This document shows positions 26,604 through 59,969 of a stretch of DNA of 59,969 bases, in pieces. Source of the stretch: a virus. The stretch lies in the IMG/VR virus record IMGVR_UViG_3300037310_000161; one strand, written 5' to 3'. Positions within the stretch are counted from its first letter, which is position 1, and every line of letters starts with the position of its first letter. The position numbers were made by a program, and so were the translations under genes. The notes under the pieces are model-generated. The model was not told where the DNA came from, did not search any database, and saw only the letters and a program-made list of their open reading frames with translations.

Positions 26604-26790
26604 GCGATTTTAGGGGGTTGAGGATTACCGAGACAGGCCGGGCCGACCCCGGCCCTCCCGTGGTGCATGAGCACCTGCCGACATTGTCCAGGACCAGTAT
26701 ATCCAAGCAGTTAAGGCTGTCGATTCCAGAAATATCACACGGAGTGATTTTCCTGGGCATGGGTCAAACTGTTTCACCTGAAGTTGCCTC

Positions 26791-26900
26791 TGGTGCAACA
26801 TTCTTGTACCAAATGAAGCACTCTTGCACCAAATGTAACCGGAGTTACACTGCACCAAATGAAACATTTTTGCACCAAATGTAACCGGAGTTACACTGCA
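26791..26900. promoter_or_regulatory. Array of TTG[CT]ACCA boxes, including two perfect 31-bp direct repeats
   Basis: TGGTGCAA (26791, inverted), TTGTACCA (26804) and TTGCACCA or TGCACCA at about 26825, 26851 and 26871. The 31-mer ttgcaccaaatgtaaccggagttacactgca occurs at 26824-26854 and 26870-26900. Each copy contains the palindrome TGTAAC-cgga-GTTACA. Confidence 0.7.
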
Positions 26901-26930
26901 TCAAACGGCTCACCATGCAGCAAACCCCGC

Positions 26931-26959
26931 TTGACAATAACCCAACGTTGGGTTATTCT
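26931..26959 (+). promoter_or_regulatory. Sigma-70-like promoter with a perfect 20-bp palindromic operator filling the spacer
   Basis: TTGACA (26931-26936), a 17-nt spacer, then TATTCT (26954-26959). ATAACCCAAC|GTTGGGTTAT is at 26937-26956. An AGGAGG RBS and ATG 27035 lie downstream. Confidence 0.55.
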
Positions 26960-27034
26960 AATCATGCACAAACCACAAATCGGCTGTAAAAACAGCCGGT
27001 TAGGTAATTCTCTAACTAACACTAGGAGGACAAC

Positions 27035-43230: not shown

Positions 43231-43591
43231 TCGGGTGGTTCTCCTCGACTACAAAGAACTCGCGGCAATGCTCAAGATCCGGCCGGGCACCCTCATGAAG
43301 TCGTGGCGGGAATGGCCCCATGTTTTTGTGGGGGCGGGACGGACTCTGAGGAGCGCCAGGTTTCCACTGGATGCGGTCGAGGGGGCTATCCGTGAGCGTC
43401 TACAAAGACAAACGGTATCCGGGGCAGTGGGCTGTGAGCTTCATGGTCCAGGGGGTGCGGTATCGAAAGCGCGGGTTCAGAACCCGCCGGGAGGCCCAGC
43501 TTTGGGAGGCCGCCGAGCGGGAAAGGGTGCTGTCCCCGCCGCGCCAGACCCCTACGGCATCCTTTGCCTCGTTGGCAAACCGCTATCTTGA
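43220..43591 (+). CDS. Excisionase/AlpA-like HTH ORF whose 3' end is anomalous
   Basis: LLDYKELAAMLKIRPGTLMKSWREWPHVFVGAGRTLRSARFPLDAVEGAIRE is a complete HTH_17-like domain. The start is TTG 43220 or GTG 43235. There is no stop until 43591, about 200 nt into the integrase gene in another frame. Confidence 0.4.
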   Translation: MGVDRVVLLDYKELAAMLKIRPGTLMKSWREWPHVFVGAGRTLRSARFPLDAVEGAIRERLQRQTVSGAVGCELHGPGGAVSKARVQNPPGGPALGGRRAGKGAVPAAPDPYGILCLVGKPLS

Positions 43592-44447
43592 GCATTGTGC
43601 CGCCAGAATGGGGAAGAACACCGTTCGGTATAAGGCGACCCATTTTCGGCGGTTTGCTCAATGGCTGGGGGGTGACTACAGTGTTGAGCTGCTCACCAAA
43701 AATATGGTCGGGGACTTCCTGCTCCATGTCGCTGGAACTAGTGGAAATAAGCAGGCAAACCGAACTCACAGGGATCTGTTCGCTCTGTTCAACTGGGCCG
43801 TGCAGGGTGAACTTACAGGAAAAAATCCGGCGCGCTCTTGGGTCCGATTCCCAGAAGATCCGTTCCACAAGTATGTACCCCCCGTAGCGGATGTTGAGGC
43901 GGTCATCCTGGCCGCCGACCCGGACGAGACCGATTTACTCGAGACCCTGTACTACACTGGAGGACGGATTGGCGAGGTACTCGCGGCCACTTGGGAGGAT
44001 GTCAATTTTGAGCGACGGGAGATCGTCCTTTGCACGCGCAAAAGAAAAGGTGGGGAGCTGCAACGGGATAAGGTTCCGATCCCGGAAGCCCTTGTCAAAA
44101 CCCTTGCCCGACGATACCGAAGACGCGGCGGTGACGGGGACGGAGCCCACATTTTCCATTTCACCGTTCACCGGAAGCGGTACTTGCTCCACCATCTCTG
44201 TGACCGGGCTAAGGTTCGGCGATTCGGGTACCATGGAATCCGCCATCACGTGGCGAGCATCCTGGCGGACAGTGGAAAGGCGACGCTCAGACAGGTTCAG
44301 CAGTTTCTCCGGCACCGCAGACCCACCACAACAGAGCACTATCTGCATGAGGTGACCCGTGATCAGCGGGAGGTGGTCGAAATTCTGGAAATCGCTCGAA
44401 AAGGGGAGAAACAGAATGAGAAGGATCATCGATGGAAAGAGGTATGA
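43392..44447 (+). CDS. int: Tyrosine recombinase / phage integrase (351 aa)
   Basis: GTG 43392 lies 8 nt after GAGGGGG (the track start at ATG 43371 is also possible). It has an arm-binding-like N-terminus VYKDKRYPGQWAVSFMVQGVRYRKRGF. Catalytic residues sit in TGGRIGEVL (R), GYHGIRHHVAS (HxxR) and RPTTTEHYLH (Y). Confidence 0.9.
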   Translation: MSVYKDKRYPGQWAVSFMVQGVRYRKRGFRTRREAQLWEAAERERVLSPPRQTPTASFASLANRYLEHCAARMGKNTVRYKATHFRRFAQWLGGDYSVELLTKNMVGDFLLHVAGTSGNKQANRTHRDLFALFNWAVQGELTGKNPARSWVRFPEDPFHKYVPPVADVEAVILAADPDETDLLETLYYTGGRIGEVLAATWEDVNFERREIVLCTRKRKGGELQRDKVPIPEALVKTLARRYRRRGGDGDGAHIFHFTVHRKRYLLHHLCDRAKVRRFGYHGIRHHVASILADSGKATLRQVQQFLRHRRPTTTEHYLHEVTRDQREVVEILEIARKGEKQNEKDHRWKEV

Positions 44448-45223: not shown

Positions 45224-45315
45224 GGATGAATGCGGGTCTGGGGCTCTCGCTCGCCTGCTAAGCGAGTGTAGTCCGTAGAGGGCTACCGAGGGTTCGAATC
45301 CCTCTCTCTCCGCCA
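45224..45315 (+). tRNA. tRNA-Ser(GCU)-like element with a defective acceptor stem, the probable attP core
   Basis: Anticodon arm CTCGC-CUGCUAA-GCGAG (45250-45266, anticodon GCU). Long variable arm GTAGTCC-gtaga-GGGCTAC. T arm GAGGG-TTCGAAT-CCCTC, then 3' TCTCTCC-G-CCA ending at 45315. The only 5' partner, GGATGAA (45224-45230), leaves 2 mismatches out of 7. Confidence 0.55.
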
Positions 45316-45330
45316 AATCAACAAGTTAGC

Positions 45331-45368
45331 CCACCCCCCTGGACACAAGACCCAGGGGGTGGTTTTTT
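45331..45368 (+). terminator. Rho-independent terminator closing the plus-strand arm
   Basis: CCACCCCCCTGG-acacaaga-CCCAGGGGGTGG followed by TTTTTT. Confidence 0.8.
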
Positions 45369-45371
45369 AAC

Positions 45372-45394
45372 AGGTGAGCAATCAGGCGAGCAAA
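45372..45394. promoter_or_regulatory. Right arm-type repeat pair (GG[TC]GAGCAA in 2 copies)
   Basis: aggtgagcaatcaggcgagcaaa read at 45372-45394. Confidence 0.55.
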
Positions 45395-45495
45395 ACGTTT
45401 TTGGGAGGGTTGATTCGGGGTCCATGCCCAGGTATGGGTCACCCCGAGATCTCCGGAAAAAAGGGCAAAATAGCGCGAAAAATTTTGGAGAATCG

Positions 45496-45789
45496 TTACT
45501 CGAAAGTACCGTAGACGGAAAAAAGGGCCGTCTCCCCCCTCCCGGACCACCCCGCCAGCGTCAAGCCCGCCTGCACCCGGTATTCCCCGACCTGATCGAG
45601 ATCCCCCGTAATGGTGATGTATCGAAGATACCGGGTCTCGCCGTCTATTGTGTGAACGCTTGCGGTTTTGGAAACCGTGGTGCCGTTCGGTTTCTTGATG
45701 TGGATCTTGGGGGACGTGGCCCCGGTGATATCCGACCCGCAGTCCACGATGATCTCGGTTCCGATGTCGCCTGTATAATATTTGTTCAT
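45496..45789 (-). CDS. Small beta-rich virion-module protein (97 aa), the last gene of the late operon
   Basis: Track ORF with an AGGGAG RBS. No family recognised. Confidence 0.55.
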   Translation of the reverse strand: MNKYYTGDIGTEIIVDCGSDITGATSPKIHIKKPNGTTVSKTASVHTIDGETRYLRYITITGDLDQVGEYRVQAGLTLAGWSGRGETALFSVYGTFE

Positions 45790-45801
45790 TGCCTGTGCTC
45801 C

Positions 45802-46662
45802 CTAGAAATTCGTGGCTGGCTCGTCTTCCAGGTCCATATCGGACACAAGGGTCATCGAACGGTTGCATGGTGACCGGAGGGCCACCGTCTGGTTCAACGT
45901 CGAGTCAAGCATCGCCGCCGGGTGGATGAAGGACCGGAGGCGGGCTTTTTCCAGAATGAGTCGGGTCACCGCCGCCGCCGCGTTTTGGGTCAGGGTCAGC
46001 GACAGGGTTCCGACCGGGTAAGCCTGCTCCACACTGACCGGGTTCACGGTCAAGGTGAGGGTCTGTGCGTCCAGAGTGATTTTGCAGTCCGCCTGGATCG
46101 ACGGGGGGAGTACCGTCAGATCGAGCCCCAGTGCCGCGCCGATGTCAACGGTCATGTCAACGACCGCACCTCCGGCAGCATGAAGCAAGGCCAGCGTCAA
46201 GGCCTGCGCCGCCACTTGTATGGTCGAGCTGACAGAGACCCCGGCGGGTTTTAGCTCAAGCTGGCAGGAAAGCGCCGAGACGTTTACCGTCGAAGAGATG
46301 CCGCCGGTGGCGCCGTGAAGCGTGAGTGTGAGGTTTTGCGGGTTGAGAGACAGGGTGCAGGACACCCCGGCACTCGCGGGAAGAAGCCCCAGGGAAAGAG
46401 CCAGCGGTTCCCCGAGTACCACCCCGCCGGAAATCGAAAGCGCGGGGCTCTTGAGCGACAGGGTCAGATCCTGGGTGCCTGAGAGCGCCGCCGTGCAGGA
46501 TATGGCAACCGTCGGGGTCTTTTTAGTGAGGGTGAGCCCGAGGGCGTTCAGGGCGGCGACGACATCCCCGGCGGCGTAAAACGGCACGATCTGGCCATCG
46601 ATCCAGGCCCACTCCGTGCTCGCGATGATGAACTGCCCGTCTACCCACTTTTCTGCCGCCAT
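45802..46662 (-). CDS. Leu/Thr/Ser-repeat structural protein (286 aa)
   Basis: Track ORF with repeated L.LTL motifs. Its start shares a base with the tailspike stop (TGATG). Confidence 0.55.
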   Translation of the reverse strand: MAAEKWVDGQFIIASTEWAWIDGQIVPFYAAGDVVAALNALGLTLTKKTPTVAISCTAALSGTQDLTLSLKSPALSISGGVVLGEPLALSLGLLPASAGVSCTLSLNPQNLTLTLHGATGGISSTVNVSALSCQLELKPAGVSVSSTIQVAAQALTLALLHAAGGAVVDMTVDIGAALGLDLTVLPPSIQADCKITLDAQTLTLTVNPVSVEQAYPVGTLSLTLTQNAAAAVTRLILEKARLRSFIHPAAMLDSTLNQTVALRSPCNRSMTLVSDMDLEDEPATNF

Positions 46663-49058
46663 CAGCTTATCACCACCTTCGGGTCAACCCACACGGTTTT
46701 TCCGGACTCGTACCCGAGAAGCCATAGCTCCAGGCGCACCCAGCCTTCCTGCTGCTGAGTAAATGAAACTTCCACGTACTGGGACCAATCCGATTGGGAC
46801 GTTCGGGTCGTAATGCTCTCATCGGAAGTCACTACTGCGGTCGAGGGGATGGTCGCATTGTCAAAGTATTGCGCCGTGAACTCCAACTCTTCAGCGGGCA
46901 GGGTCGCAAAATCACTCTGCACATAGATCCGCAGGGTTTTGGCTCCCGTAGTCAACCATATGGCGGTTTTAAGAATCTCAAATTTTCTAAGCGCATATGC
47001 CGGACTAGCTTCACTGTTTGGAACAACTTGAAAAATATATGCAGATCCTCCACTTCTCTGAGATGGATTACTTCCAGAACCATTAGCAGAAATTTTAGTG
47101 GATGTTCCATACATAGTATATTTGATATGAGTATTCAAAATTTGATTATCATGCTCAGATGTGAGTGAAAATTGATCATCATTGGAAGCATTATTAGATA
47201 TAAGACTAGTAGTAGCATATTTTAGGTTTCTACACTGGATAGATCTAGTCCCCCCTCTAATATCAAAAGCGGTAACAGGAGTAATCGGACAATTTCCATC
47301 TCTGTCATAACCAATGTTACCAGAAAAAATTCCTCCAAAATTTACCCCGGTATATACAAATTTATATAACTGATACGCATAAAAATCATCTTTTATTACA
47401 AATTGAGAAGGGATTGGAGCGTTAAAAGACGTATAAAATATCTGCCCACAATCTTTACACTCTCCGGATATTTGGCCCCTATATATAGTTCCATTAAATA
47501 CTAGTGAGCATTGTTCAGCATAAAAAGTACTTGTAGTTTCAAGCCAATATACAGTTCCAAAAACATTTGTAATTGACCTATATACTTTTGCACCAAAAAG
47601 AATTTTTGCATTATAAGTATTATAATTATCTACGACATTCCCACAACCGTACATCTCACAAGTAGAAGTAAAAGTTACAACCCCATTATTAGTATTAGCG
47701 GAAATTGCAGCCGTACCACATCCAAAAAACTTAGCATTAATTTCACCACTCGATATAGTGTGCAGACCATAACACAGACCGGCAAAATGAGTGTTACTAT
47801 CTACAGAAAGAGTGCCAGACATTGTCCTAATACCGACAGTAACAGCAGAGACACTACCGCCAGCAAAAACAGCGTTAGAAACAGTCACATTGGAGGCATA
47901 ATACGTAGCTCCACTGCAACCCCAATAACACCCACCAGATATTACGTGACCAACCCCATAATATATAAAATATCCCACTGCAGAAGTTGATGTTGTGCCA
48001 AAACTACCTATTTCACATTGAAATATACCACCATGAGTGGCAGTTAACCCATAATCAATTATATATGTAGTATTAATAGTTGTGTAAGTTCTTATTGAAA
48101 CATTTCTACTTAATAAATAAATTCGACTCTTGGAATCTATTGTGCTGTCAACATTATTTCCTAGAGTTATTGAAGTGGAGCTTATACTTGAAAGTGTAGA
48201 AGTTTGACTATCTGGATATATTGTGGATGCTATACCATCTATAAGTGCTACCCTATTATGGTCTGCTGTAGTGGCCCATTGGGAATCACCTGTAACATCA
48301 GTATTAACCGCTAACACGCCCGTAGAAGTATTGGTAAAAGGAGACCAAACTGAAATAGTGCCACTTCCATCAGTAGTTAAATCAATAATTCCAAAAGCTA
48401 TACTATAACAATTAGTCTGTAATTTTATAGTGTTTGTTGTAACTGCTGTTGTATAATAAATTTTATTTTCTTGAAGAGGGGCAGGAAGGCTGCCTCCAGA
48501 AACAGTCAAATAAACGGGAGTGTAATTTGCAAGTCCATGGGAAGTGAATGTTAAGGTGTCGTTTGCTGCTGAACCAACCCACCCGGATTGCTGCTTGCCT
48601 TTTATCTCTGCGTACTTGATCGTAGGGTCGGTACAATAGAGGGCGATGTCCAGGTTCGCCGCGTTGATCTTCGCGGTTCCGGCAAGGTGGATGATCGCCT
48701 TATAGGCAAACGCGAGAGGCGATGTTCCGCCCCATGTCCCGTTGCTGTTCGCGAGCAGGCGCCCACGGTTCGTACTGGTTGTCCCCGCAATACTGCACGC
48801 TGTTTTGACCTTTAGGAATCCCGAGGTTCCGTCATGAAATTCCAGCATTCCGGGAGGGGCTCCCCCACGGATCGTAAGGCCCCCCAGCCCATCGGCAAAC
48901 CCGCTCTGGTCAGCATCCATCGTGACGGTCACGCCCGCGCAGATGTAGACCACGTCATTGTTGGCGGGAACGGTAGCCCCGCCCGAACCCCCATCGCTGT
49001 CGCTCCACGTGCTGGTGGAAGACCAGAGCCCCGAGGCTACCGCATATTTGTTTGCCAT
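46662..49058 (-). CDS. Tailspike / receptor-binding protein with a beta-helix-like core (798 aa) and mosaic base composition
   Basis: N-terminus MANKYAVASGLWSSTSTWSDSDGG...VVYICAGVTVTMDAD. The centre is long and Ser/Thr/Asn/Gly-rich with periodic G.C/Y.G strands. The call as a beta-helix depolymerase-like spike rests on pattern and position only. Confidence 0.65.
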   Translation of the reverse strand: MANKYAVASGLWSSTSTWSDSDGGSGGATVPANNDVVYICAGVTVTMDADQSGFADGLGGLTIRGGAPPGMLEFHDGTSGFLKVKTACSIAGTTSTNRGRLLANSNGTWGGTSPLAFAYKAIIHLAGTAKINAANLDIALYCTDPTIKYAEIKGKQQSGWVGSAANDTLTFTSHGLANYTPVYLTVSGGSLPAPLQENKIYYTTAVTTNTIKLQTNCYSIAFGIIDLTTDGSGTISVWSPFTNTSTGVLAVNTDVTGDSQWATTADHNRVALIDGIASTIYPDSQTSTLSSISSTSITLGNNVDSTIDSKSRIYLLSRNVSIRTYTTINTTYIIDYGLTATHGGIFQCEIGSFGTTSTSAVGYFIYYGVGHVISGGCYWGCSGATYYASNVTVSNAVFAGGSVSAVTVGIRTMSGTLSVDSNTHFAGLCYGLHTISSGEINAKFFGCGTAAISANTNNGVVTFTSTCEMYGCGNVVDNYNTYNAKILFGAKVYRSITNVFGTVYWLETTSTFYAEQCSLVFNGTIYRGQISGECKDCGQIFYTSFNAPIPSQFVIKDDFYAYQLYKFVYTGVNFGGIFSGNIGYDRDGNCPITPVTAFDIRGGTRSIQCRNLKYATTSLISNNASNDDQFSLTSEHDNQILNTHIKYTMYGTSTKISANGSGSNPSQRSGGSAYIFQVVPNSEASPAYALRKFEILKTAIWLTTGAKTLRIYVQSDFATLPAEELEFTAQYFDNATIPSTAVVTSDESITTRTSQSDWSQYVEVSFTQQQEGWVRLELWLLGYESGKTVWVDPKVVIS

Positions 49059-49074
49059 TCCCGTCCCCTAACTT

Positions 49075-49485
49075 TTAGCTTTGGGTGAAAATCCCGTCCG
49101 TGTGAAACTGAAGCGTGAAGGTGCCATTCTCGACGGTCTTGTCCGCCCCGAGGTCGAACAGGCAAACCAGTGGGTCATTTGCCGCCGTCTCATCGAGAAT
49201 GACCGCATATCGGCACGTGAACGTGGCCCCTGTCCAGGAGGGGTTATCCGCATCAAAAGTTACGACCGCGCCGTCCCGCGTCCAGGTCACACCCGTTAGA
49301 GCTTTGTCTTTTTGAGTGTATCCCCCGGAGGACGCAAGCTCGTCTGAAAGGTCTGCATAAACCGCGTCGGTTGCGTCCGGGGTGTAGGAACTGCTCAGAA
49401 GGACGACCTTGAAAGTGTCATTGTCGAGATCAATGGTGCCGTCGCCCAAGAACTCTCTGAAACTGTTGAAAAACATGTCCGCCAT
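49075..49485 (-). CDS. Conserved-looking virion protein (136 aa) between the giant ORF and the tailspike
   Basis: Track ORF with an AAAGGAG RBS. Sequence: MADMFFNSFREFLGDGTIDLDNDTFKVVLL... Confidence 0.6.
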   Translation of the reverse strand: MADMFFNSFREFLGDGTIDLDNDTFKVVLLSSSYTPDATDAVYADLSDELASSGGYTQKDKALTGVTWTRDGAVVTFDADNPSWTGATFTCRYAVILDETAANDPLVCLFDLGADKTVENGTFTLQFHTDGIFTQS

Positions 49486-49580
49486 TGGAAAGCTCCTTTT
49501 CTGTGGGGGCCTTCCAGTGTGTGTGGGTCTGACCCGGTTGACTTCAGCCTATTTTAGGAGAGTGGCGGGGATTTGTCCAG

Positions 49581-52500
49581 CTAATCCGCCGTCGCGGCGA
49601 GAAGCGCCCGCTCCCGCCTGCCGGGTTGCCGCATCCGGTTTATCTGACCCCGCAGTGCTTCCCTGCTGATGAGTGGAACGTAGGCCTGCCGCCCGGCCGA
49701 AAGCACCCGGTTGTTGTAAGCCGCCACCTGATCCATGATGATCTTGAGCTCCACCGGATCCTTGGCGCCGTCTGACACGTATGCCCGATACCGCTCGTAG
49801 ATCTTCCCCCTGGATTCGCCATAGCGGGACAGCTCCGCCTTAGCCTCGAACTGCCGCTCTTCGTGCATGGCCCGCTCGGATCCCCGGAACCCCGAAGCCC
49901 GCTGCATGGTCTCGGTCGTGCTCGGCCGGTACGGTTTCCCGTTCTTATCCCACACCTGCTTGCCGGAGCTGGTGGTGACCGAATCCAACTCCCGGAAGGC
50001 CCGAACGAGATTCGAGGCGAATGCCGGAAGCGCCTTTTCAGCCGCCTTGAGGGGCTGCCCGGTGGAGAGATACCCCCCGGCTTTCTGGATATCGGTCGCA
50101 ACCCCGCCGAAAGGCCCGGTAAGGTCGGTAAGAGTTTTAGGGACTTCGAGCCCGATGGCGAGAGACCCCGAGATATCGACCCCCAGAAGGCCCATGATCC
50201 CGTACCGGGCGCCTTTCTCCGCCGTGTCCCCGAGAGTCTTCCGGATGGTGTCGTAGACCATTTTCTCCGGGTCGCGGTCGTCGTCTGCGGCTCCGAGGAT
50301 CCCCCGAGCTATCGCCATGGCGGCGGCATAGCCCGCAAATCCCGAAGCCCCGCCGAGGACCGCCGGTGCCGCCAGGGCGAAAGCCAAGCCCTTGGCGTCT
50401 TGCCTGTTCAGCTTGTGCTCGAAGAGCATCTGCACGTAGTTGTGGGCAAACTTCTGAAACGTGTAGCCGGTCTGCGCGATCTTGGCGAACGGGTTGGTCC
50501 CCATGGCCCACGTCGGGAGCGTCCCCTTGCCGTACACCCCGTGCGCCCGCTCGGTTGCGAGCTGCGCGTTCTTTGCCGCCGTCGCGGCGTTCTGCCCCTG
50601 CGCCCGGGCCATCCGGTACGCGGCAAGAAGGGTCGTCCCACGGTTCCACTGCTCGGTTTTCCCGAACATCCACATGGCTTTGTCCATGACCTTAGACCAC
50701 ACGCCGCCGAACCCCTGATCCAACTCCCGCATGGCCTCCCGCACAAGCTGCGGGTTGTCCACCCCACGGGTGTGAACGTCGGCCATGAATGTCCGCTCCT
50801 CCTCGTTTGCAAACTCCTTTCCGCCCATGAAGGCCCCGTAATCTTTACCCGCCGTGAACAGCTCCTGCCCGATCTTGAGGAGGCTCCCCTTGCCGCCCAG
50901 TGCAAACTTGAGAATGGCGGGGGGTGCTGTCGTGGCCTGCGCCGTCACGTTGACGAGGGCCGACCTCGGGTTGAATCCCAGGTACTTGAAAGACACGATG
51001 GATTTCCCGAGCGCGATAGCCCGGTCCCACCTGTCGGCGTTCCGCATCTGCTCTGTGACGTATCCCTTGAGCCAGGAGTAGCGCTTAGGCTCTTTCACGG
51101 CATCAACGTCCATGAGCGCGGCCATCATCTTCTGCCCGGCTTCCGCCTTGGCGATACCGCCCGCGATCTGGGCGACGTAATTTCCAACCCTTTGGGCCGG
51201 GTCCGTGATGTAGCCCCGGACCACCTCGCCATCGCGCCCCGTTCGTGCGATCTTATGCGCCCGGAAGGCCCGGGCCTTCAGCATGTTGGATGCGGACACC
51301 AGGACTTCGCCCTGGAGGGCCGCGTTCAGCGCCGGGTGCTGGACCGCCTGATTGACCGCGTACTCGATGGCTTTTCCCATGTCCACGATGTTGAGGTTCA
51401 TCTGGATGTCTTCGGGGAGCTTCGAGACCAGGCCGTCCCGGAAGTTCGTGTAGCCTTCCCGCCCAAGCTGAAGCTTGAGCTTTTCGATCTGCCGCTGGCT
51501 TCCCTTGTGGAAGCGGTAGAAGTTGCCGTCCTTATCCTTGGCCGTCAGGAAATATTCTCCAGGCTCCCTGGACCGGGGGGCGTAAAAGCCCTTGAGTTCC
51601 CCCATCTCCTGGTAGAGAAGCAGGAGCTGGGAAAGGGTGTATTTCTGCTTGCGCCCGTCTCCCAGCGGGATCTCGATTGACGGCTCGCCCTGATCTGCTG
51701 GCGGTTTGTTCGGGTTCTTCTTCTCTTTTTCCAGGGTGTCGATGATGTCTTTGACCGGCTGTCTCAGGTACTCCAGCAACTCATCGAACGTCTTGCGAAC
51801 AGAGTCGACGGCCGCGAGCCCTTCGGCCGAAAGCCCGGACTTGGACCTCATCTCCGACCACTTGACCTCGTTCACGTCCATATCGTCCAGAATCTTTTCG
51901 ACCTTCGCATACTCCGCCGGGTCGGCTTTCCTGAGAGCGGACAGGCGGTCTACCGGGTCTTTATGCTTGAGGTAGATCTCGTTTTTGCGCTCTTCCCGGT
52001 GCTGGGTCGCATCATAGGCCTGCTTCACCGTCGGGTGGTCTATGTACTCCGGGGTTCGGAGCATACTCTCAAGGAACGTCATGTCCTTGGGGTGCAGGGC
52101 CTTCTTGAACGCCTGCACGGTCGAGGTGACTTCGTCTCTCATCTTGGACTTGAGCGAGGCATGGATGTCCGGGTTGCTGGGGTCGAACGTGCCGCGATTA
52201 AAAATGGATTTAATTTGAGTTGGAGAGAAAACAACATAAATATCATCAGTTATTGGATCATTCACATTTTTAAAAATTACTCCGTCGTTACCATCCGCTA
52301 TAGCTTCATCTAAAATCTCTGAAAAAGTTATATCGCCCCGCACTTCATGGTTAAAATCATGAATCTTAGGATTTTTTATAGATAAATATGCTGGAATTAT
52401 TCCTGGATTAAATTTTGCATATCGATCTCTCTGTAAATACATTTTTACAAAATAGTCAACCTTGTCTTTCTCTAGCTTAGCCTCATAAAATTCAACAGTA

Positions 52501-55500
52501 AGCCTTCGATCTTGTGCATATAATTTTTTTGCAACAGCAACATCATCTTTCGTTGTGTTATCGAGCACGTCATTGGCATCTAGCACTCTGTCTTCATACT
52601 GTTTTTTTGATAATTTCCCGGCATCGTACTCTCTTTTGGCAATATCAAGCTCCCTCAAGGAAGCTTTTGCTTTCTTGACCGGCTTTGGCAAAGACTTCAT
52701 TTGCTGCCTTGCTCGCCCTTCTCGTTTTTGAGTGATTTTATTGAATTGATCGTAGACCTCTTTTTGTCGAGAAAGAAAGGCTTCGCTTGTAATGTCGGGG
52801 GTCGTGTACATCTCGGCGTTGTCAGCAGATTTTGCGAAGAAAAACCCTCTTAGGGCGCTTGCAGCTCCCGTATTTTCTCCTAACCGACCAATGTCAAACG
52901 CTTTAAATTCAGGGTTGTCGGAGCCATGATACACTACCAGAGGTTCTCCATTTTCATCCACCACCTTGCTGTTACCGAACCACTTCTTGAAGGCGTCCGT
53001 GCTTGCAATCTTCTTCGCCGCACCCAGCACACCCTCAAGATTCTCGGCAGACTTCGGGCCTGCCTTCTCCAGGGCTTTCCTCGACGCCACCAGCATGGCT
53101 TTAATGTCGTTTTCGCTGAGCTGGATGTTGAACCCGAGCCGCCGCAGCCCCTCCCGAATGGCCGCGTACAGCCTCTTCAGAAATGCTGGGTTCTCCCCGG
53201 CTTCGGCCATCTCCGCGATCTTCTCGTCGGCCGCGATCAGCCGGTCGGCCTCTTCGGTGAGGTCCAGACCGTAAAGGTCCGCGATATCCTTCAGGCCCTT
53301 CTGCCCGTAGAGCGCCACCGCCTCTTTGAGGAACGGCTTGAACCTGTCCCCCAGAACCCCGCGCATCCCGTGGTGGCCCACCACTTCGTGGAGCACCACC
53401 TGCTGGGCGCGGTCTGCCGACTCCAGGTAGTCCGCAATCAGGTAAACGGCCCCGGTCGCTGGGTCGTAGAGACCCTCCAACCCGTCCGCGTCGGTCGCTC
53501 GGGAAAGGAGCTTCTGCACCTTTTCCTTAACGTCGTCCGGCAAGCCGTAGAGCGACTGCACGATCTGAATCTTCGGCCCGGCCTTCCACCTGTCGATAAC
53601 CGGGGAGAGCGCTGCCTGGATGTCGGACGCCTTGCTGCTGGACTGTGCTTGCCCCCGGGAGAACCGGAGATAGTCCTGAAGGTAGTTATCTTCCTGCTCC
53701 ATTTCGGCGTCTTGCTGCCCTTCCACCGCCCGCCGTCGCGCTTCCGCTTCCTCCGCCTGCTGCCGGGCAAGAAGCTCCTGTGTGATGGCTTCAAGCCTCT
53801 GTGTTTTCCGGGCCAGCTCTTCTTCCTGCGGAAACGGGGTCGCTATCAGTTTCTCCAGCTTGGGGGTTTCGTTCTTGATGTCCTGAATGCTCTTCAGCTT
53901 CTCTTGAATTGTTCGGGCGAGCGACCGCTCGATGTCGGTCAGACCGCTCTTAACGCCGTCCGCCATGGGTGCCTGATAGTGAACGTCTTTCCCTATCTTG
54001 TAGACAAGTGCCGTATCCCCTACCGTGAGGGAGAGATGGCCAGCCAGCGGGAGGAAAACCCTCGATTTCTTGGGCTTCCCCTTGGCGTCCGGGGTCTCGA
54101 CGGTGACAATGCGCCCGAATCTCCCGAGGTACACGCTGTCCGGGCTGTCTGCCGTCTTCTTGGCTGTCCACGCTGCATGAAGTTTGCGGGCGAGGGCGTT
54201 GACCTTGCCGCCCTCGGTTTCCAGGTTGAAATGGCGGTTGGGCTCGACAAGCCGCCCGAGGTTGTCATGCTGCGGCTTGAACTCTATCGCCATGATAGAT
54301 TCGGCTATTTGTTTGTGGATATGCGAGCGTTCAATGGTTTTCTCCGCTGCTGTCATCATCAGCGGGAGCTTCGCGAGCTTCTCCTTGGCCCGGCGGCGAC
54401 CGGACTCGTAGTCCGCCTTGACGTTCGAAAGCCGCCGCACTTCTTCATCCAGCTCGATCTTTTCCTTGTGGATCGGATCGTCTGCGAGCAACCCCTCCAT
54501 TTCCGAAGCGTCCATGGAGGTCTTCGAAATATCGATGATGTTCCGAATTTTCGGGTTGTTGCTCATGATCTGCTGCAGGACTTTTTCCTTGTAAGCCACG
54601 GTTGACCACATGAACGCATCGACCGTTTTCACCGTCCCGTAGTTGAAGATCCCGACGTTTTTGATCCGGTTCCCGTAGCGCCACCCACGCCCGTTGCGTT
54701 GCTCGTAGTTGGCATAAGTCCAGTCCACGTCCAGGTGGTGGATGTAGGACACCCGGTCTTGGACGTTCACCCCGATCCCCATCTTTGGGGTCGAGCCAAT
54801 GAGCACGCGGATTTGGCCTTTCCGCGCCTTGAGTAGCAGTGCGGCGAGATCGTCGTCGCTCTTCGCGTCGTGGATGAAAGCAATCTGCTCTTTCGGAATA
54901 CCCTTCTTGATGAGCTTCTGCTTGATGTCAGCGTAGATGTTGAACTTGTCTTTTTTGCCCGGTACTCCGCGATCCGCGAAGATGAGCTGCAGGTGGTTCT
55001 TTTCCTGGTACGCCTGCTTGTAATTCTTGGAGCTTTGATCCAGCTCTTCCGCGTCCACCGCTTTCTGATAAAGATCCCAAACCTTATCGACCGCGACGTT
55101 GACCTTCGTGTTCTCATAGTCGGGGAGAGTCGGGTCGTAGAGCCGGGGATCCATGGCGACCGTTCGCCCGTCGGAAACCACGCGGAGGATATTGTCGTTG
55201 ACCCCCCGGAAAGTAGCCTTGTCCCCGAGGGCGCGGATGCTCCGAATCCTCCGCTTGAGAAGATCCTGAAAGGCTTCCGTGAACTTGTTCCACTCCACCA
55301 TAACGGGCTCGGGCTTGCCCCCGATCACGTCCGGCCGGACAATCCCGAGGTCTTTCGCCTGCCGGACGTCCATTACCTGCCGCGCCAGCGCGAGAAGCTC
55401 CGGCACGTTCACGAACTCCGCAAACCGGCTGGTCATTTTGAAATGCCCGCCCTCCGGTGCGTACTCCGCCTCTTTGCGCATAACCCCGAACGTGTTCGCC

Positions 55501-58500
55501 CACGCATCGAACGTGTCGATCCCCAGCCGCGTAAGCTCGTTCGGCTGCAGATACCGCTGAATGTTGAAAAGCTCGCCCACGGAGTTTGTGAGCGGGGTGC
55601 CGGAAGCCAGGATGATTCCCCGACCGTTCCGCATGTGCAGGTACTGGGTCTTGAGGAAGAGGTCCAGAGCGATATTGGACTTCCCGGACTCCACACCCTT
55701 CATGTTCGCGAACTGGGTGGCAAACCCGATGTTCTTGTGGGTGTGAGCTTCGTCCGCCACAATCAGGTCGAGCCCCATTTCTTCGAACGTGGGGACTCCT
55801 TCCTCGCCTTCCGAGAGCTTGTCCAGTTTGTCTCTGAGGGCCTTGATCTGCTGCCCGATTTGCCGCACGGTGAACTGGGAGGCGCTAGCGCTGTCAGCGT
55901 GGCTCTGCACCCGCTCCATCCGCTGGATTTCCTGATGGAGGAACTCCCTTTGCGTATCGGGCGAGAGCTTGATTCGCTCAAAGGAGTTGTGGTTCATGAT
56001 GACGCAGTCATAATTTCCCGTGGCGATCTGGGCGAGCTGCCGCTGTCTCTTCTGCGGGTTGGTCTTGGAAACCGCTATCGTCAGGATGTTCGCCCCTGGA
56101 TAGAGCCGGAGGAAATCCGCCGCGATCTGCTCGACCGTGGCTTTCTTCACGATAAGGACCGGCTTCTTGGCGAGCCCGAGCCGCCGGGCCTCCATGATTG
56201 ACCCGATCATCGTGTAGGTCTTCCCGGTGCCAACCTCGTGCGCGAAGTATGTCGCCCCGGTCTGAAGGAACCGCCAAATGGCGTTCTTCTGGTGCGGTCT
56301 GAGCTTGATAATCTCGTCAGGCACTTTGCCGGGGAAAGTGAGGTGCTCCCCGTTATACTGCCGGTCCACAAACGAGTTGAGCCGCTCGTTGTAGGTTTTC
56401 TCGAGCTGGGCGGCCGCATCGTCGTTTTCGTAGACCCACTCGCTGAGCCTCGCCTGGAGTTTGGCGAGCTTCGCGTTAGCGGCGTCTGTCAGGGCGATGT
56501 TGGTGACCATCCGGGTCTTCCTGTTCCCGTTCTCGTCCAGGTACTCGATTTTATCCTCGATGACCGGAAAGCCGCCATTCAGCGCATAGTCGATAAGCCC
56601 ACGGTCGCTACCCTTTTTGAAGAGGTTGATCCGGTATTGTTTGAGCCCGGTCGCTTCCAGAACCTTGACGAAAAGAGGCACACTCAGGGAGTCGGTGTCA
56701 GGGTCGAAGTTTTGATTGTATTCCCTGATTGCCTCTTCAGAGCTGCCGAAGGTTTCTATCAGTTCATCACGTTCCTGGAGCGTCAGGTTTTCTCGAAGAG
56801 AGGTATACCCGATTGGGTTCTTCTTGTAGCTGACAACCCCGAACTCTTCTGCGGCAACCAGGGAAACCATCGCGTTGTCCTTCCGGCGTTTGGCTTCCGC
56901 TTCGGTACTCGCCCGGAAATGGGGGTTCCACATTCCCGTTTCAAGTACATGATCGACGTAAAAACCACGGATTCCACGGCCACCGAACAGACCGTCCTTC
57001 ACGAAGCTCTGAACCACCTGCGCCGGAACCCAGGACATCCCAAGACGTGCGCGGATGTCCGACATGGGGAGATCGACGGGCATTACAATCTTGAGCGCCT
57101 CGACGTTTTCCTTGTACTTCTCGTCCAGGGCGGCCGCCGCCTCGGCCACCGCCAGCTTGCGCCGCACGTTTCCGCTCAGATACGCGTCTGCCGCGACGTA
57201 CCCGGTCTCGGGGTCGTCGAATATCTGCCCCTTCAGTTCGGCAATAAGGGTGTCCCGGGTTTTGCCGGTGAGCTGCCCCATGTAGGCGAGGTCCACCCGG
57301 CCGCGCCACTGAAGCGAATAGAGAAGACTTTCATGTGAGGTATCCGCCGAAGTCGGCGGCTCTACCGGGGCGAGAGTGTTCTTGAAGAAAATGTCCGCGA
57401 GCCCGGTAACGGTCTTCGTCCCACGGTCCCACTTCTCCAGGCTGAGGAGAAGCCCGCCGTCCGGGTCATCAACGATGAGCCGGGCATTTTCCGGTTTGTT
57501 AATCGGCCCATACGTCTTGACCAACTGATCGTAGGCGGTGCGGAGCTGTTTTCTGAGAACGGTCAGGTCGGCGGCGGATTGCTTTTTTACCTGCGCGCGG
57601 AGAAGGTTTCGGATGATCCCCCGAATACCAATTACCCCCTTCATGAACTCCTGTTCTTTCGGAGTCAGATTGTCCCGCAGGGAAGGCCGCCCGTCCCGGT
57701 TCTGGTAAATCTTCCCGTTGTCCCCCACGTAGTAGTTGTAATTTTTGACGTGAGCGGCCTCCGGGATCATGTTCGTGAAGTCAAGCTCGATAGGAGCCCG
57801 GTCCTGCCCGTAAATCGAGACAGGCAAGCGGTCTATGGCGCTTCGCAAATCGTCGCGGTACGTGCTCTTCATAGCAACGTAGGGGCGGTATGCCCCGTAG
57901 CGCCCGGAGTTGACCGCGAGATCCCCGAGAACGTTCTCCGGGACCGCCTGGAAGAAGTTGTTCACCTGTGTTCTGCGGGGAGTCGAACCCGCTATGAAGT
58001 TGCCGTTGGAATCCACCTCGGGAAGGATGACCGCTTTGGACTCCACCCAATCGGGGACCGTTGGAAGCGCCGGTAGCCCTTCGCCTTTCTTCCGGAAGAT
58101 GAGAATGTCCGCTCCGGCGAAAGCCCCAGGGAAGACACCGTTTGGGAGCCGGATAGCGGAAACGAGGTCTGCGCTCTCCGCGAACTTTCGGCGGGCCTTG
58201 GCGTCTTCCTTATCCATGGTCCCCGTGGACGTGAGAACCACGGTCAGGCCGCCGGGCTTTGTAATGTTGATCATCTTGCTGATGAAGTAATCGTGGATCT
58301 GAAACTCTTCCAGGTTGTGCGTCCGGTCCACGGGCTCGGTCTGCCCGAACGGCACGTTGGAGATGGTGAGGTCATAGAAGTTGTTCGGGACGGCGGTCTT
58401 TTCGAACGGCTGATTCAGGATGTTCGCGTTCTGGTAGAGCTGGGCCGCGATTCTCGCGGAAATCGGGTCGATATCCACCCCTGTGAGGAGGGAATTTCGC

Positions 58501-59969
58501 CGCGTTTCCCGCGCCATGGTCCCGAAGAAATGCCCGATACCGCAGGAGGGCTCAAGAACTTTGCCGCCCATAAAGCCGAGGCGGCCGAGAGCTTCGTGGA
58601 CAAGTGCGGCAACGCTTGGTGGCGTGTAGTAGGCATCCACCGCGTTTTCGTAAAGCTGCCACCGCTCTTGATCGGTCAGGAGAGACTTGACGATTTCCGC
58701 ACGCCCGGCCCAAGCAGGGTTGGGGTAGGAACCGAGAGCTTCAGAAAGCTCCCCCCACCCGTTGTATTTGACCAGGATCTCTTGTTCCGCCGCCGTGGCC
58801 GTCCGGTTCTCGGCTTCGATCTGTTTGAGGGTTCGGATCGCCGCGATATTGTTGTTGAATCGGTCGGTGAGGTTGGTGTTCTCAAGATCCGTCGTGTTCC
58901 GGATGATGTAGTCTAGCCGCTCGGATACGTGAACGGCGTCTGCGTTGGATGAAGTGTCGGTTCCTCCTCCTCCGACGGCAAGTAGATCATCATCGGTAAG
59001 ACTATCTCCTTCGCTTCCTCCAGGCTGTACCCCTTCTGCATCAAGTCCACTACCAGATCCAGCGCCTTCTCCTGGGCCTCCAGGGCCGACTTCTCCAGCA
59101 CCCCCGCCGCTTCCAGGCGTGCTACCATGTTCGGACGGTGCTTCCGCCAGTGCTTCAGAGCCTCGGTCCCCCATGTCCGTAATTGTGCCATCCGGAACCT
59201 CCAATTTGATGATAGTGTCGCCGCCTGGATGATCGACCGCCTTCAAGAAGAAGGAAAGAGCATCATCCGCCTTGAGCGGCTGGTCGTACGCCACAGCCCC
59301 CTTGCCCGCGTACTCCACTCCCCCCTCGCCTTTTTCAAGCTGGTAGGAGTCATCGTAAGCGAGATACCCCTTCGGCTGGGCCGCCACCCCCCGCGCAGAC
59401 TGCTCGTATGCGTACCAGTAAAGCCCCCCGGCGCTTGCCTTCCCCCCGTAAAGGGCTTCATAGACCGCGTCGATCCGCTTCAGGAGCTTCTGGACTGCTT
59501 CTTTGGCTTCTTTCCGCTCGAGAGTCGTGATCGGGTTGTACCCCTCCTTCGCGTGGGGCTCGCCCTTTTCGGACCACTCAAGCTGGTCGAACATATTGTC
59601 AAAAAGCCGGTTGAACCTCTCCCGCTCTTCAGCCGTTGGATAAGCCCCGTTGTCGCGGTTGAAGAGCGTCTCCACACCCCCGGGAGCCACGAAATCCGTA
59701 TCGACCAGATACCTGTTACCTTCCTGGAGCTTGTCCGAAACGTAGGCTTCGAATGCCCGGGCAAACATCTCATCGGGCTTAGACCAATACTTGCCGACTT
59801 CGCCGCCGTCCAACGCCATAGCATTTTTGAAGAACTTCGTGTTTTCCGTAATCTTGTAGACGGCATTTTCCCGCATGAATTTCTTCGCCGCCTCAAGCCG
59901 CCCAGCGCGGTTCCGGGTCTCGCTCCACATGCCCTTGAGGGCGTCTATCATCATATCCTCAAGGCCCGC
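49581..59969 (-). CDS. Giant polyvalent virion protein, C-terminal 3,457+ codons (methyltransferase, SNF2 helicase, second zincin motif, ART-like domain, hydrophobic C-terminus)
   Basis: Track ORF 49581..59954. Its listed Met is internal because the frame stays open to 59969 and continues at base 128. Motifs are itemised in the separate domain features. Confidence 0.9.
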   Translation of the reverse strand, partial: AGLEDMMIDALKGMWSETRNRAGRLEAAKKFMRENAVYKITENTKFFKNAMALDGGEVGKYWSKPDEMFARAFEAYVSDKLQEGNRYLVDTDFVAPGGVETLFNRDNGAYPTAEERERFNRLFDNMFDQLEWSEKGEPHAKEGYNPITTLERKEAKEAVQKLLKRIDAVYEALYGGKASAGGLYWYAYEQSARGVAAQPKGYLAYDDSYQLEKGEGGVEYAGKGAVAYDQPLKADDALSFFLKAVDHPGGDTIIKLEVPDGTITDMGDRGSEALAEAPSEHGSTPGSGGGAGEVGPGGPGEGAGSGSGLDAEGVQPGGSEGDSLTDDDLLAVGGGGTDTSSNADAVHVSERLDYIIRNTTDLENTNLTDRFNNNIAAIRTLKQIEAENRTATAAEQEILVKYNGWGELSEALGSYPNPAWAGRAEIVKSLLTDQERWQLYENAVDAYYTPPSVAALVHEALGRLGFMGGKVLEPSCGIGHFFGTMARETRRNSLLTGVDIDPISARIAAQLYQNANILNQPFEKTAVPNNFYDLTISNVPFGQTEPVDRTHNLEEFQIHDYFISKMINITKPGGLTVVLTSTGTMDKEDAKARRKFAESADLVSAIRLPNGVFPGAFAGADILIFRKKGEGLPALPTVPDWVESKAVILPEVDSNGNFIAGSTPRRTQVNNFFQAVPENVLGDLAVNSGRYGAYRPYVAMKSTYRDDLRSAIDRLPVSIYGQDRAPIELDFTNMIPEAAHVKNYNYYVGDNGKIYQNRDGRPSLRDNLTPKEQEFMKGVIGIRGIIRNLLRAQVKKQSAADLTVLRKQLRTAYDQLVKTYGPINKPENARLIVDDPDGGLLLSLEKWDRGTKTVTGLADIFFKNTLAPVEPPTSADTSHESLLYSLQWRGRVDLAYMGQLTGKTRDTLIAELKGQIFDDPETGYVAADAYLSGNVRRKLAVAEAAAALDEKYKENVEALKIVMPVDLPMSDIRARLGMSWVPAQVVQSFVKDGLFGGRGIRGFYVDHVLETGMWNPHFRASTEAEAKRRKDNAMVSLVAAEEFGVVSYKKNPIGYTSLRENLTLQERDELIETFGSSEEAIREYNQNFDPDTDSLSVPLFVKVLEATGLKQYRINLFKKGSDRGLIDYALNGGFPVIEDKIEYLDENGNRKTRMVTNIALTDAANAKLAKLQARLSEWVYENDDAAAQLEKTYNERLNSFVDRQYNGEHLTFPGKVPDEIIKLRPHQKNAIWRFLQTGATYFAHEVGTGKTYTMIGSIMEARRLGLAKKPVLIVKKATVEQIAADFLRLYPGANILTIAVSKTNPQKRQRQLAQIATGNYDCVIMNHNSFERIKLSPDTQREFLHQEIQRMERVQSHADSASASQFTVRQIGQQIKALRDKLDKLSEGEEGVPTFEEMGLDLIVADEAHTHKNIGFATQFANMKGVESGKSNIALDLFLKTQYLHMRNGRGIILASGTPLTNSVGELFNIQRYLQPNELTRLGIDTFDAWANTFGVMRKEAEYAPEGGHFKMTSRFAEFVNVPELLALARQVMDVRQAKDLGIVRPDVIGGKPEPVMVEWNKFTEAFQDLLKRRIRSIRALGDKATFRGVNDNILRVVSDGRTVAMDPRLYDPTLPDYENTKVNVAVDKVWDLYQKAVDAEELDQSSKNYKQAYQEKNHLQLIFADRGVPGKKDKFNIYADIKQKLIKKGIPKEQIAFIHDAKSDDDLAALLLKARKGQIRVLIGSTPKMGIGVNVQDRVSYIHHLDVDWTYANYEQRNGRGWRYGNRIKNVGIFNYGTVKTVDAFMWSTVAYKEKVLQQIMSNNPKIRNIIDISKTSMDASEMEGLLADDPIHKEKIELDEEVRRLSNVKADYESGRRRAKEKLAKLPLMMTAAEKTIERSHIHKQIAESIMAIEFKPQHDNLGRLVEPNRHFNLETEGGKVNALARKLHAAWTAKKTADSPDSVYLGRFGRIVTVETPDAKGKPKKSRVFLPLAGHLSLTVGDTALVYKIGKDVHYQAPMADGVKSGLTDIERSLARTIQEKLKSIQDIKNETPKLEKLIATPFPQEEELARKTQRLEAITQELLARQQAEEAEARRRAVEGQQDAEMEQEDNYLQDYLRFSRGQAQSSSKASDIQAALSPVIDRWKAGPKIQIVQSLYGLPDDVKEKVQKLLSRATDADGLEGLYDPATGAVYLIADYLESADRAQQVVLHEVVGHHGMRGVLGDRFKPFLKEAVALYGQKGLKDIADLYGLDLTEEADRLIAADEKIAEMAEAGENPAFLKRLYAAIREGLRRLGFNIQLSENDIKAMLVASRKALEKAGPKSAENLEGVLGAAKKIASTDAFKKWFGNSKVVDENGEPLVVYHGSDNPEFKAFDIGRLGENTGAASALRGFFFAKSADNAEMYTTPDITSEAFLSRQKEVYDQFNKITQKREGRARQQMKSLPKPVKKAKASLRELDIAKREYDAGKLSKKQYEDRVLDANDVLDNTTKDDVAVAKKLYAQDRRLTVEFYEAKLEKDKVDYFVKMYLQRDRYAKFNPGIIPAYLSIKNPKIHDFNHEVRGDITFSEILDEAIADGNDGVIFKNVNDPITDDIYVVFSPTQIKSIFNRGTFDPSNPDIHASLKSKMRDEVTSTVQAFKKALHPKDMTFLESMLRTPEYIDHPTVKQAYDATQHREERKNEIYLKHKDPVDRLSALRKADPAEYAKVEKILDDMDVNEVKWSEMRSKSGLSAEGLAAVDSVRKTFDELLEYLRQPVKDIIDTLEKEKKNPNKPPADQGEPSIEIPLGDGRKQKYTLSQLLLLYQEMGELKGFYAPRSREPGEYFLTAKDKDGNFYRFHKGSQRQIEKLKLQLGREGYTNFRDGLVSKLPEDIQMNLNIVDMGKAIEYAVNQAVQHPALNAALQGEVLVSASNMLKARAFRAHKIARTGRDGEVVRGYITDPAQRVGNYVAQIAGGIAKAEAGQKMMAALMDVDAVKEPKRYSWLKGYVTEQMRNADRWDRAIALGKSIVSFKYLGFNPRSALVNVTAQATTAPPAILKFALGGKGSLLKIGQELFTAGKDYGAFMGGKEFANEEERTFMADVHTRGVDNPQLVREAMRELDQGFGGVWSKVMDKAMWMFGKTEQWNRGTTLLAAYRMARAQGQNAATAAKNAQLATERAHGVYGKGTLPTWAMGTNPFAKIAQTGYTFQKFAHNYVQMLFEHKLNRQDAKGLAFALAAPAVLGGASGFAGYAAAMAIARGILGAADDDRDPEKMVYDTIRKTLGDTAEKGARYGIMGLLGVDISGSLAIGLEVPKTLTDLTGPFGGVATDIQKAGGYLSTGQPLKAAEKALPAFASNLVRAFRELDSVTTSSGKQVWDKNGKPYRPSTTETMQRASGFRGSERAMHEERQFEAKAELSRYGESRGKIYERYRAYVSDGAKDPVELKIIMDQVAAYNNRVLSAGRQAYVPLISREALRGQINRMRQPGRRERALLAATAD
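52155..52997 (-). other. ART-like (polyvalent-protein ADP-ribosyltransferase-like) domain with a coiled-coil insert, inside the giant ORF
   Basis: FKKWFGNSKVVDENGEPLVVYHGSDNPEFKAFD (YHG at 52923-52931, verified) ... FFFAKSADNAEMY ... DGVIFKNVNDPITDDIYVVFSPTQIKSIFNRGTFDPSNPDI. The family assignment is from memory of the ART-PolyVal pattern and needs an HMM search. Confidence 0.5.
53370..53390 (-). other. Second zincin-like motif, HEVVGHH, inside the giant ORF
   Basis: The reverse complement of 53370-53399 reads VVLHEVVGHH. Context is GAVYLIADYLESADRAQQVVLHEVVGHHGMRGVLG. Confidence 0.5.
54645..56303 (-). other. SNF2/DEAH-box helicase module inside the giant ORF
   Basis: LRPHQKNAIWRFL, AHEVGTGKTY (about 56217-56231), LIVADEAH (DEAH at 55743-55754, verified), SGTPLTNSVGELFNIQRYL, and the C-terminal lobe IGSTPKMGIGVNVQ...EQRNGRGWRYGN. 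Confidence 0.85.
58080..58637 (-). other. N6-adenine DNA methyltransferase-like domain inside the giant ORF
   Basis: Motif I VLEPSCGIGHFFG at 58521-58559 and motif IV ISNVPFG at 58344-58364, both verified against the DNA. Confidence 0.8.
59843..59969. repeat. Terminal overlap copy 2, identical to 1-127
   Basis: Same comparison as for 1-127. The unique genome length is therefore 59,842 bp. Confidence 0.95.

Follow-up and report, generated by a model that had tools for sequence, protein, structure and literature searches.

The virus record IMGVR_UViG_3300037310_000161 of IMG/VR, analysed here over its full stretch of 59,969 nucleotides (nt; hereafter the window), contains a minus-strand gene for a predicted tailspike-like protein of 798 amino acids (aa), whose two ends are rich in G+C and whose centre is strongly AT-rich. 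What might explain such a gene? The mosaic is a real feature of the DNA and not an artefact of assembly, and its core, as judged by sequence comparison, appears to be the homologous central part of a diverged relative in the same protein family, with an orphan distal helix, and not an unrelated module. That the core was acquired horizontally is very probable. The full course of events is best explained, with a probability that we put at about 0.75, by replacement of the core with that of a diverged, AT-rich family member.

According to this explanation, the gene product would be a receptor-binding or glycan-degrading tailspike-like protein of a widespread, uncharacterised family of tailed phages, composed of a conserved N-terminal domain, a right-handed β-helix and a C-terminal jelly roll resembling a carbohydrate-binding module (CBM). 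In a temperate phage lineage of roughly 60% G+C (GC), codons 161-697 would have been swapped through two in-frame crossovers for their counterpart from a diverged family member long resident in an AT-rich genome (about 33-38% GC), and the recipient's own first 160 and last 101 codons would have been retained. The crossover on the C-terminal side (C-side) would lie within the C-terminal domain, needing a donor of the same architecture. The import would have drifted barely at all toward the composition of the phage, would have been in place before at least two circulating variants diverged, and would since have accrued mainly amino-acid-changing differences, as expected for a host-recognition surface.

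A gene in three compositional parts

The break in composition is abrupt. A two-break maximum-likelihood fit to the GC of third codon positions (GC3) divides the gene into codons 1-160, 161-697 and 698-798, with borders at nt 48578 and nt 46967 (GC3 of each part, and the intervals within two log-likelihood units of the borders, or 2-lnL support, are given in Table 1), and gains 94.6 log-likelihood units compared with a maximum of 9.4 in 30 permutations of codon order. Overall GC is 0.600 in the N-terminal part, 0.358 in the core and 0.549 in the C-terminal part, in a window of 59% GC where 200-nt segments outside this core and a second low-GC cassette (discussed below) have a mean of 0.603 (standard deviation, sd, 0.050; minimum 0.42) and the other long open reading frames (ORFs) have a GC3 of 0.64-0.79. 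Third positions of the core are 54% T and 26% A, its four-fold sites 50% T and 30% A versus a background of 13% T and 9% A, and its codon usage is anticorrelated with that of the gene ends and of the neighbouring giant ORF (relative synonymous codon usage, RSCU, r = -0.59 and -0.63). A search for tandem repeats within the gene found none.

The original prediction, made from the letters and ORFs alone, had placed a three-part mosaic at 46970-48600, about 20 nt or less from the fitted borders. It gave the GC-rich ends about 150 and 100 codons, close to the fitted 160 and 101, and since the gene is on the minus strand, those first 150 codons correspond to approximately 48600-49058. Its two counted 60-nt lines are exact (37 G+C of 60 at 48901-48960; 18 of 60 at 47161-47220), and the reading frame is, as it said, open over both borders. 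The centre was described as rich in Ser, Thr, Asn and Tyr, and the core is indeed richer than the ends in these residues, and also in Ile.

Table 1. Coordinates of the gene, its parts and joints, and other features of the window.
Feature	Position	Strand	Details
Gene of 798-aa tailspike-like protein	46662..49058	-	ORF and translation; N-terminus at 49058
GC-rich N-terminal domain, putatively native (codons 1-160)	48579..49058	-	GC3 0.71; most conserved part of the family
Low-GC core, very probably imported (codons 161-697)	46968..48578	-	GC3 0.196; from composition and homology
GC-rich last 101 codons and stop, putatively native	46662..46967	-	GC3 0.67; C-terminal jelly-roll domain
N-side joint, putative recombination site, support interval	48539..48581	-	Codons 159-173; at the linker after the N-terminal domain
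C-side joint, putative recombination site, support interval	46958..46979	-	Codons 693-700; inside the C-terminal domain
Second low-GC cassette	52196..52958	-	Codons 2332-2586 of the giant ORF; GC3 0.32
Giant DarB-like polyvalent ORF	49581-59954	-	
136-aa upstream neighbour	49075..49485	-	GC-typical; phrog_644 (unknown function) and C-terminus of a 'virion structural protein' PHROG
286-aa downstream neighbour	45802..46662	-	GC-typical; start overlaps the stop of the 798-aa gene
tRNA-Ser(GCU) with encoded CCA	45224-45315	+	Between the tailspike operon and the integrase
Integrase	43371-44447	+	

Are the joints present in the phage? Three or four contigs, from JGI as well as Logan sources, encode the identical protein, and one Logan contig (L001; related loci carry L numbers and proteins P numbers) is 100% identical to the window over 45288-59058 (13.8 kb) and reproduces both borders exactly. 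A variant contig of 1149 nt (L036, JGI 3300037308, protein P0110) aligns without gaps to 46361-47509 at 97.2% identity and has the C-side GC3 step too, from ~0.2 to ~0.67. Because this variant differs in sequence yet shows the step, the C-side joint also exists in a non-identical genome. Mis-assembly at the borders, which had been named in advance as fatal to the mosaic, is therefore unlikely. It is scarcely credible that a chimeric metagenome assembly fused two phages, one GC-rich and one AT-rich, at two places, although the contig is metagenomic and the Logan run may represent the same library as the JGI assembly: a different assembler yields the identical 13.8 kb, the 2.8%-divergent variant comes from another dataset, each joint keeps the frame and the collinearity with the family, a second in-frame cassette lies 3 kb away, and a GC3 of 0.2 versus 0.7 leaves almost no shared k-mers that could mislead an assembler.

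The differences between the variant and the window are distributed very unevenly. The low-GC part contains 30 in 542 positions, the GC-rich C-end 2 in 306 and the downstream gene 0 in 301, and the contrast of core with flanks (2/607) is highly significant (Fisher P = 1.7e-8). Of the changes in the core, 26.5 count as non-synonymous and 3.5 as synonymous. Two points weigh against our interpretation at this level: the resulting ratio of non-synonymous to synonymous change (pN/pS), at 2.1, is not significantly greater than 1 (P = 0.18), and the N-side joint is present only in identical assemblies, those of the window and of Logan SRR12687664, which possibly derive from the same reads. The core differences (46968-47509) are clustered, with four in 9 nt at 47136-47144 and five in 22 nt at 47486-47507. 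Such clustered, mostly non-synonymous differences suggest surface loops under diversifying selection, or micro-conversion tracts.

Kinship and origin of the core

When 5.8 billion protein clusters were searched, the protein proved to have 107 relatives, all of them metagenomic, 570-1124 aa in length and none with a Pfam domain. The protein itself has no Pfam match at E <= 0.1 and no PHROG match at E <= 0.01, a PDB sequence-profile search gave nothing at E <= 1, and tblastn against phages gave only a weak 68-aa match to a hypothetical protein of the archaeal virus PhiF1. In the family consensus, an N-terminal region of ~150 aa is well conserved; the middle contains, among other motifs, SRNVSIRS and GGVFQCEI and then continues into SGxxxGCxxG coils; and a C-terminal domain completes the protein. 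Both of the named motifs fall within the low-GC part of the window gene, and most matches align unbroken from aa 1 to ~476, at 37-47% identity, across the GC border. The best identity is 64-65% for aa 1-160, 50% for aa 161-476, essentially none for aa 477-697 and 43% for aa 698-798. Because aa 161-476 are collinear with, and 40-50% identical to, the equivalent positions of the N-terminus' own family, the donor would be a diverged member of that same gene family. A search of the 5.8 billion clusters with the core only returned the same family, with a maximum of 49% identity over 41% of the core. For aa 477-697, an exhaustive HMMER search of 1.84 billion representatives gave 15 matches, the phage's own variant and 14 weak ones that are mostly restricted to approximately aa 577-692 at 28-37% identity; aa 477-576 are an orphan, with no relative in that set besides the phage's own variant.

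The position of the C-side joint is informative about the donor. The family C-terminal domain begins at about aa 635-668 in most alignments, and in the window protein the jelly roll spans approximately aa 640-798, of which the first 40-60 residues are low-GC and the last 101 have the native composition. The joint thus sits inside this domain, which argues for a donor that had the same architecture, and the border is not at the edge of the conserved C-terminal domain, where the original prediction had put it. Its proposal of an import between two conserved domains holds for the foreign, AT-rich core; it does not hold for a separate module slotted between the domains, as the core is collinear with the family.

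Could illegitimate recombination nevertheless have placed an unrelated module, for receptor binding or depolymerase activity, between a conserved anchor and the conserved C-terminal domain? The orphan stretch of aa 477-576 would fit this, relatives carry domain insertions near the N-side position, and both joints coincide with non-consensus patches that are possible scars of imprecise joining. At the N-side joint, aa 150-159 read AEIKGKQQSG versus VRTYGTKYTV in the conserved family, a departure from consensus, ~3 sd above the mean, that only one other 10-aa stretch of the protein exceeds, and codons ~150-181 have an intermediate GC3. At the C-side joint, a 2-residue insertion (aa 696-697) separates the conserved F693 from I700/W701. 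These patches are also compatible with the imprecise joining of diverged homologues, and we give them little weight. An unrelated module is nevertheless improbable, since the first 316 residues of the core align collinearly with the same positions of the family and the C-side joint lies within a domain, not at its boundary. A comparison of the two joints with each other, and of the two low-GC cassettes, for repeats or shared sequence gave chance-level short matches only, and no internal duplication of the N-terminal domain was found at the joint. A target of a diversity-generating retroelement (DGR) was considered and rejected: no part of the gene recurs elsewhere in the window as a possible template, and the variable region, at 1.6 kb, is far above the size of a DGR target. 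Among the selected ORFs that were scanned, none matched a reverse transcriptase.

The foreign signature of the core extends beyond its codons to the protein. In the homologous region of aa 161-476, the excess of Phe, Tyr, Met, Ile, Asn and Lys over Gly, Ala, Arg and Pro (FYMINK-GARP) tracks GC3 among 29 relatives with known DNA (r = -0.76). The value for the window protein is +0.04, where the regression predicts +0.01 at a GC3 of 0.22 and -0.10 at 0.70; it is ~4 residual sd off the expectation for a GC3 of 0.70 and fits the low-GC family members. The GC of first and second codon positions (GC1+2) in the same region is shifted likewise, again fitting the low-GC members. High-GC relatives are GC-rich through the whole homologous region (GC3 of 0.70-0.86 in L037, with L013, L015, L019 and L026 similar), so the fold does not require AT-richness.

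These observations also bear on the idea that the core acquired its composition in situ, without transfer, by mutation bias or by selection for AT-rich or slow β-helix codons. Tail-fibre genes are often below the GC of their genome, and relatives L003, L018 and L025 show milder central dips in GC3. Compositional drift would, however, have to produce borders with support intervals of only 8 and 15 codons and to shift GC1+2 and amino-acid make-up as well; high-GC relatives keep a high GC3 over the homologous region; and a GC3 of 0.20 in a background of 0.70 is unparalleled in the window except for the second cassette. We therefore regard drift as extremely improbable.

The ends and the core differ in their closest relatives; had they shared them, the original prediction would have been refuted. 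The nearest relatives of aa 1-160 are P0039, P0008 and P0013, then P0006 and P0001; those of aa 161-476 are P0004, P0026 and P0027; and those of aa 698-798 are P0014, P0005 and P0024. An alignment-based ranking names partly different relatives, still with no overlap between N-terminus and core. Over 67 relatives, the similarities of the N-terminus and of the core are uncorrelated (Spearman rho -0.04), the second lowest value among 68 sequences, for which the family median is 0.37. The best N-terminal relative, P0039, is encoded by a gene with a GC3 of 0.80, and the best relative of the core by one with a GC3 of 0.42. This comparison of segments is a weak one because all relatives are distant, at no more than 65% identity for the N-terminus and 50% for the core.

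Some results count against a transfer from an AT-rich relative. Core identity does not rise in low-GC relatives when tested over the family, and no donor above 50% identity was found, the 49% match over part of the core being the best. A scan of metagenome contigs with six peptide patterns gave no confirmed locus. With no donor found and relatives uniformly distant, the foreign origin rests on composition together with a weak phylogenetic incongruence.

That phages trade receptor-binding parts horizontally, behind an N-terminal domain that stays conserved, is textbook knowledge. In T7-like fibres and tailspikes, a conserved N-terminal anchor of ~140-160 aa precedes a distal part that is horizontally transferred (PMC7693777), and distantly related Alteromonas phages share host-recognition modules (PMC10579305). 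The window gene resembles these systems in its conserved N-terminal domain of ~160 aa, followed by a segment of apparently different history with a joint at the domain end. Unlike in those exchanges, the proposed swap is internal, the last 101 codons being native and the second joint lying inside a domain; the import is homologous to the part that it replaced and is not a different fold; and the compositional contrast is extreme, in a family without annotation.

Phages change their host range mainly through mosaic receptor-binding proteins. The window gene would be an unusually clean case, with a GC3 step of 0.5 and joints resolved to within 8 and 15 codons, one of them inside a domain, in a protein family entirely unannotated by current databases. 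It provides a concrete example for composition-based detection of intragenic transfer, and it suggests that transfer can replace an internal homologous stretch, beyond just the distal end. The present view of phage evolution is unchanged by this; the event is of an ordinary, known kind, differing only in its details.

Predicted fold and role of the protein

What does the protein do? An AlphaFold (AF2) model, all-beta and built of short regular strands, has a mean predicted local distance difference test (pLDDT) score of 81; the score is high in aa 1-400 and 640-798 but drops to 50-65 in aa 400-640. Foldseek matches it to solved phage tailspikes and depolymerases at E-values of 7e-8 to 1e-4 (7vul, 7e-8; 4ru4, 2e-6; also 8iqe), and to BFVD models at E-values down to 2.5e-19, among them pectate-lyase-like proteins and entries named as tailspikes or tail fibres. 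For the last ~150 residues the matches are CBM4/16/22 jelly rolls, at a template-modelling score (TM-score) of ~0.5. The periodic strand pattern that had been read from the translation as a receptor-binding or depolymerase module therefore agrees with the model, which points to a β-helix of the tailspike/depolymerase type. On this modelling the protein is likely to be a tailspike-like receptor-binding or glycan-active protein.

Three findings tell against a tailspike assignment. The TM-scores of the whole-model Foldseek matches are low (0.13-0.30), and for that reason the tailspike match is a fold-class assignment only. The N-terminal domain has no similarity to known particle-binding domains in Foldseek: modelled in isolation (aa 1-165, pLDDT 89), its best PDB match has an E-value of 2.4, none being significant, and 'virion anchor' is an unproven, putative role for aa 1-160. 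Finally, the gene lies outside the main structural block of the window, following the giant polyvalent protein near the integrase, so that a tail location is deduced from relatives and from the fold. Among relatives, the family gene is directly after the tape-measure gene in L030, a few genes after a J-like central fibre gene in L020, and a few genes downstream of a GtrB-like glycosyltransferase in L019. It comes after capsid genes in L025, L038 and L040. No neighbours are conserved across 35 related loci.

In L038 (1-8340) the family gene is flanked by capsid genes and head-completion genes, with methyltransferase and Stealth_CR2-like genes next to it, and in L040 (894-4415) a homologue of the capsid cement protein Bbp16 is encoded upstream of it. 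These placements are unusual for a tailspike and hint that in those phages the protein may be a capsid fibre or play an accessory part.

Together with the position of the window gene and the lack of conserved neighbours, they would fit a non-tail protein, either a capsid fibre or a soluble glycan-active accessory enzyme, in which case the mosaic would reflect accessory-gene turnover and not host-range switching. The fold matches, however, are overwhelmingly to tailspikes and tail fibres, the tape-measure and J-like genes precede the family gene in L030 and L020, and the 136-aa protein encoded upstream in the window matches the 'virion structural protein' PHROG. A non-tail role is consequently unlikely, less so than an unrelated core module, and we consider it reasonably probable that the protein is a tail-associated receptor-binding protein.

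The predicted right-handed β-helix core is like those of the tailspikes and depolymerases of Klebsiella phage P560 (7vul), Pseudomonas phage LKA1 (gp49, 4ru4), K2-2 (TSP, 8iqe) and P22 (gp9), and the distal part is likewise variable and under diversifying change, with the proviso that the pN/pS excess is not significant. Unlike these proteins, it shares no sequence similarity detectable with Pfam, PHROG or PDB profiles, its TM-scores are low, its N-terminal domain matches no known head- or tail-binding domain, and its C-terminal domain is CBM4/16/22-like.

A second cassette, related genes and genomic surroundings

The giant DarB-like ORF contains a second low-GC cassette, whose GC3 compares with 0.75 and 0.82 on its two sides (log-likelihood gain 112.7) and which starts exactly at the start of an ART-PolyVal domain (PF18760, aa 2333-2455). 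This second in-frame cassette confirms the earlier claim that the phage has taken in low-GC DNA at least twice. The architecture of the ORF is like that of DarB-like polyvalent proteins with shuffled effector domains (LPD1, N6_Mtase, SNF2 helicase, ART-PolyVal), its ART-PolyVal domain being itself the low-GC cassette and a second import at domain scale. The tailspike core differs from it in gene, function and composition, and the polyvalent cassette begins at a domain boundary. GC climbs gradually through this cassette, from ~0.30 near 52200 to ~0.50 near 52900. The only other stretch of the window in which 200-nt GC falls below 0.45 is 26679-27076 (minimum 0.42).

Do the two cassettes come from a common donor, a comparison that the original prediction had proposed? 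They are alike only in AT-richness at third positions (RSCU r = 0.65). Their GC3 differs (0.196 in the tailspike core, 0.319 in the giant ORF; P = 2e-4), as do their four-fold sites (T 0.50 and A 0.30 in the core, T 0.31 and A 0.34 in the second cassette; P = 0.008), and because of these differences a common donor is unsupported. The difference could also reflect different ages of transfer.

We analysed 23 complete family genes alongside the window gene for breaks in GC3, and several exceed the permutation null. One of them, on contig CAZBTL010000410.1 (L005, gene 562-2583), is a second case of GC-rich ends with a low-GC3 core: GC3 is 0.61, 0.31 and 0.69 in its three parts, the low part covering codons 270-540, and the core is non-repetitive with T-rich third positions (gain 36 versus a null of ~9). 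Its break points are unlike those of the window gene.

The high-GC3 centres (0.84-1.00) of L034, L012, L016 and L022 were considered as further transfers and rejected, as tandem arrays of a 57-nt, 19-aa unit explain the high GC3. The arrays occupy codons 310-462 in L034, 363-548 in L012, 340-490 in L016 and 366-487 in L022, and arrays of the same unit are found at codons 369-489 in L026 and 352-408 in L030. The unit reads GTVSGCxxGxxxGSGHTIS; its copies are 88-94% identical in nucleotide sequence and use nearly all C- or G-ending codons, in backgrounds with a GC3 of 0.44-0.8. This suggests recent expansion or homogenisation of the repeats that encode helix coils.

It could be imagined, as a long shot, that the N-terminal domain and the last ~100 residues are recombination 'handles' by which a whole β-helix core is moved between phages. 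If so, the core cassette would cross between hosts ~25 percentage points of GC apart, that is, across phyla; the phage would be a recent recipient whose core has yet to drift, with L005 as a second instance; the family would record how host-recognition modules of uncultured phages pass between phyla; and the tRNA-Ser(GCU) could help to translate the AGT-rich import. AGT codons are enriched ~10-fold in the low-GC core, at 31.7 per 1000 versus a background of 3.3 per 1000. This tRNA may be what is left of an attachment site, or else a phage tRNA that aids translation of the import.

The contig is of the temperate-phage type and also encodes a portal, exonuclease, DNA polymerase, primase and endolysin. 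On the minus strand, the 798-aa gene is third in a block, after the giant ORF and the 136-aa protein and before the 286-aa ORF and a 180-aa ORF. The DNA polymerase is ~38% identical to the polymerases of known phages, and positions 46000-50000 of the window have no megablast match among 50,697 phage records; this distance of the polymerase and the unmatched tailspike region indicate an uncultured lineage. The giant ORF (49581-59969, minus strand) runs off the end of the window, with 3457 aa encoded in the window versus 5259 aa in L001. Circularising the window ends does not extend it, as the joined ends meet a stop after 39 codons, so the contig is apparently truncated and not circular.

The main structural block contains other large fibre or adhesin candidates on the minus strand: a 626-aa protein with a Laminin_G_3/ConA-like lectin domain (12183-14063), and proteins of 924 aa (6973-9747) and 709 aa (9752-11881) of unknown function. 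With several such candidates, the phage may carry more than one receptor-binding protein.

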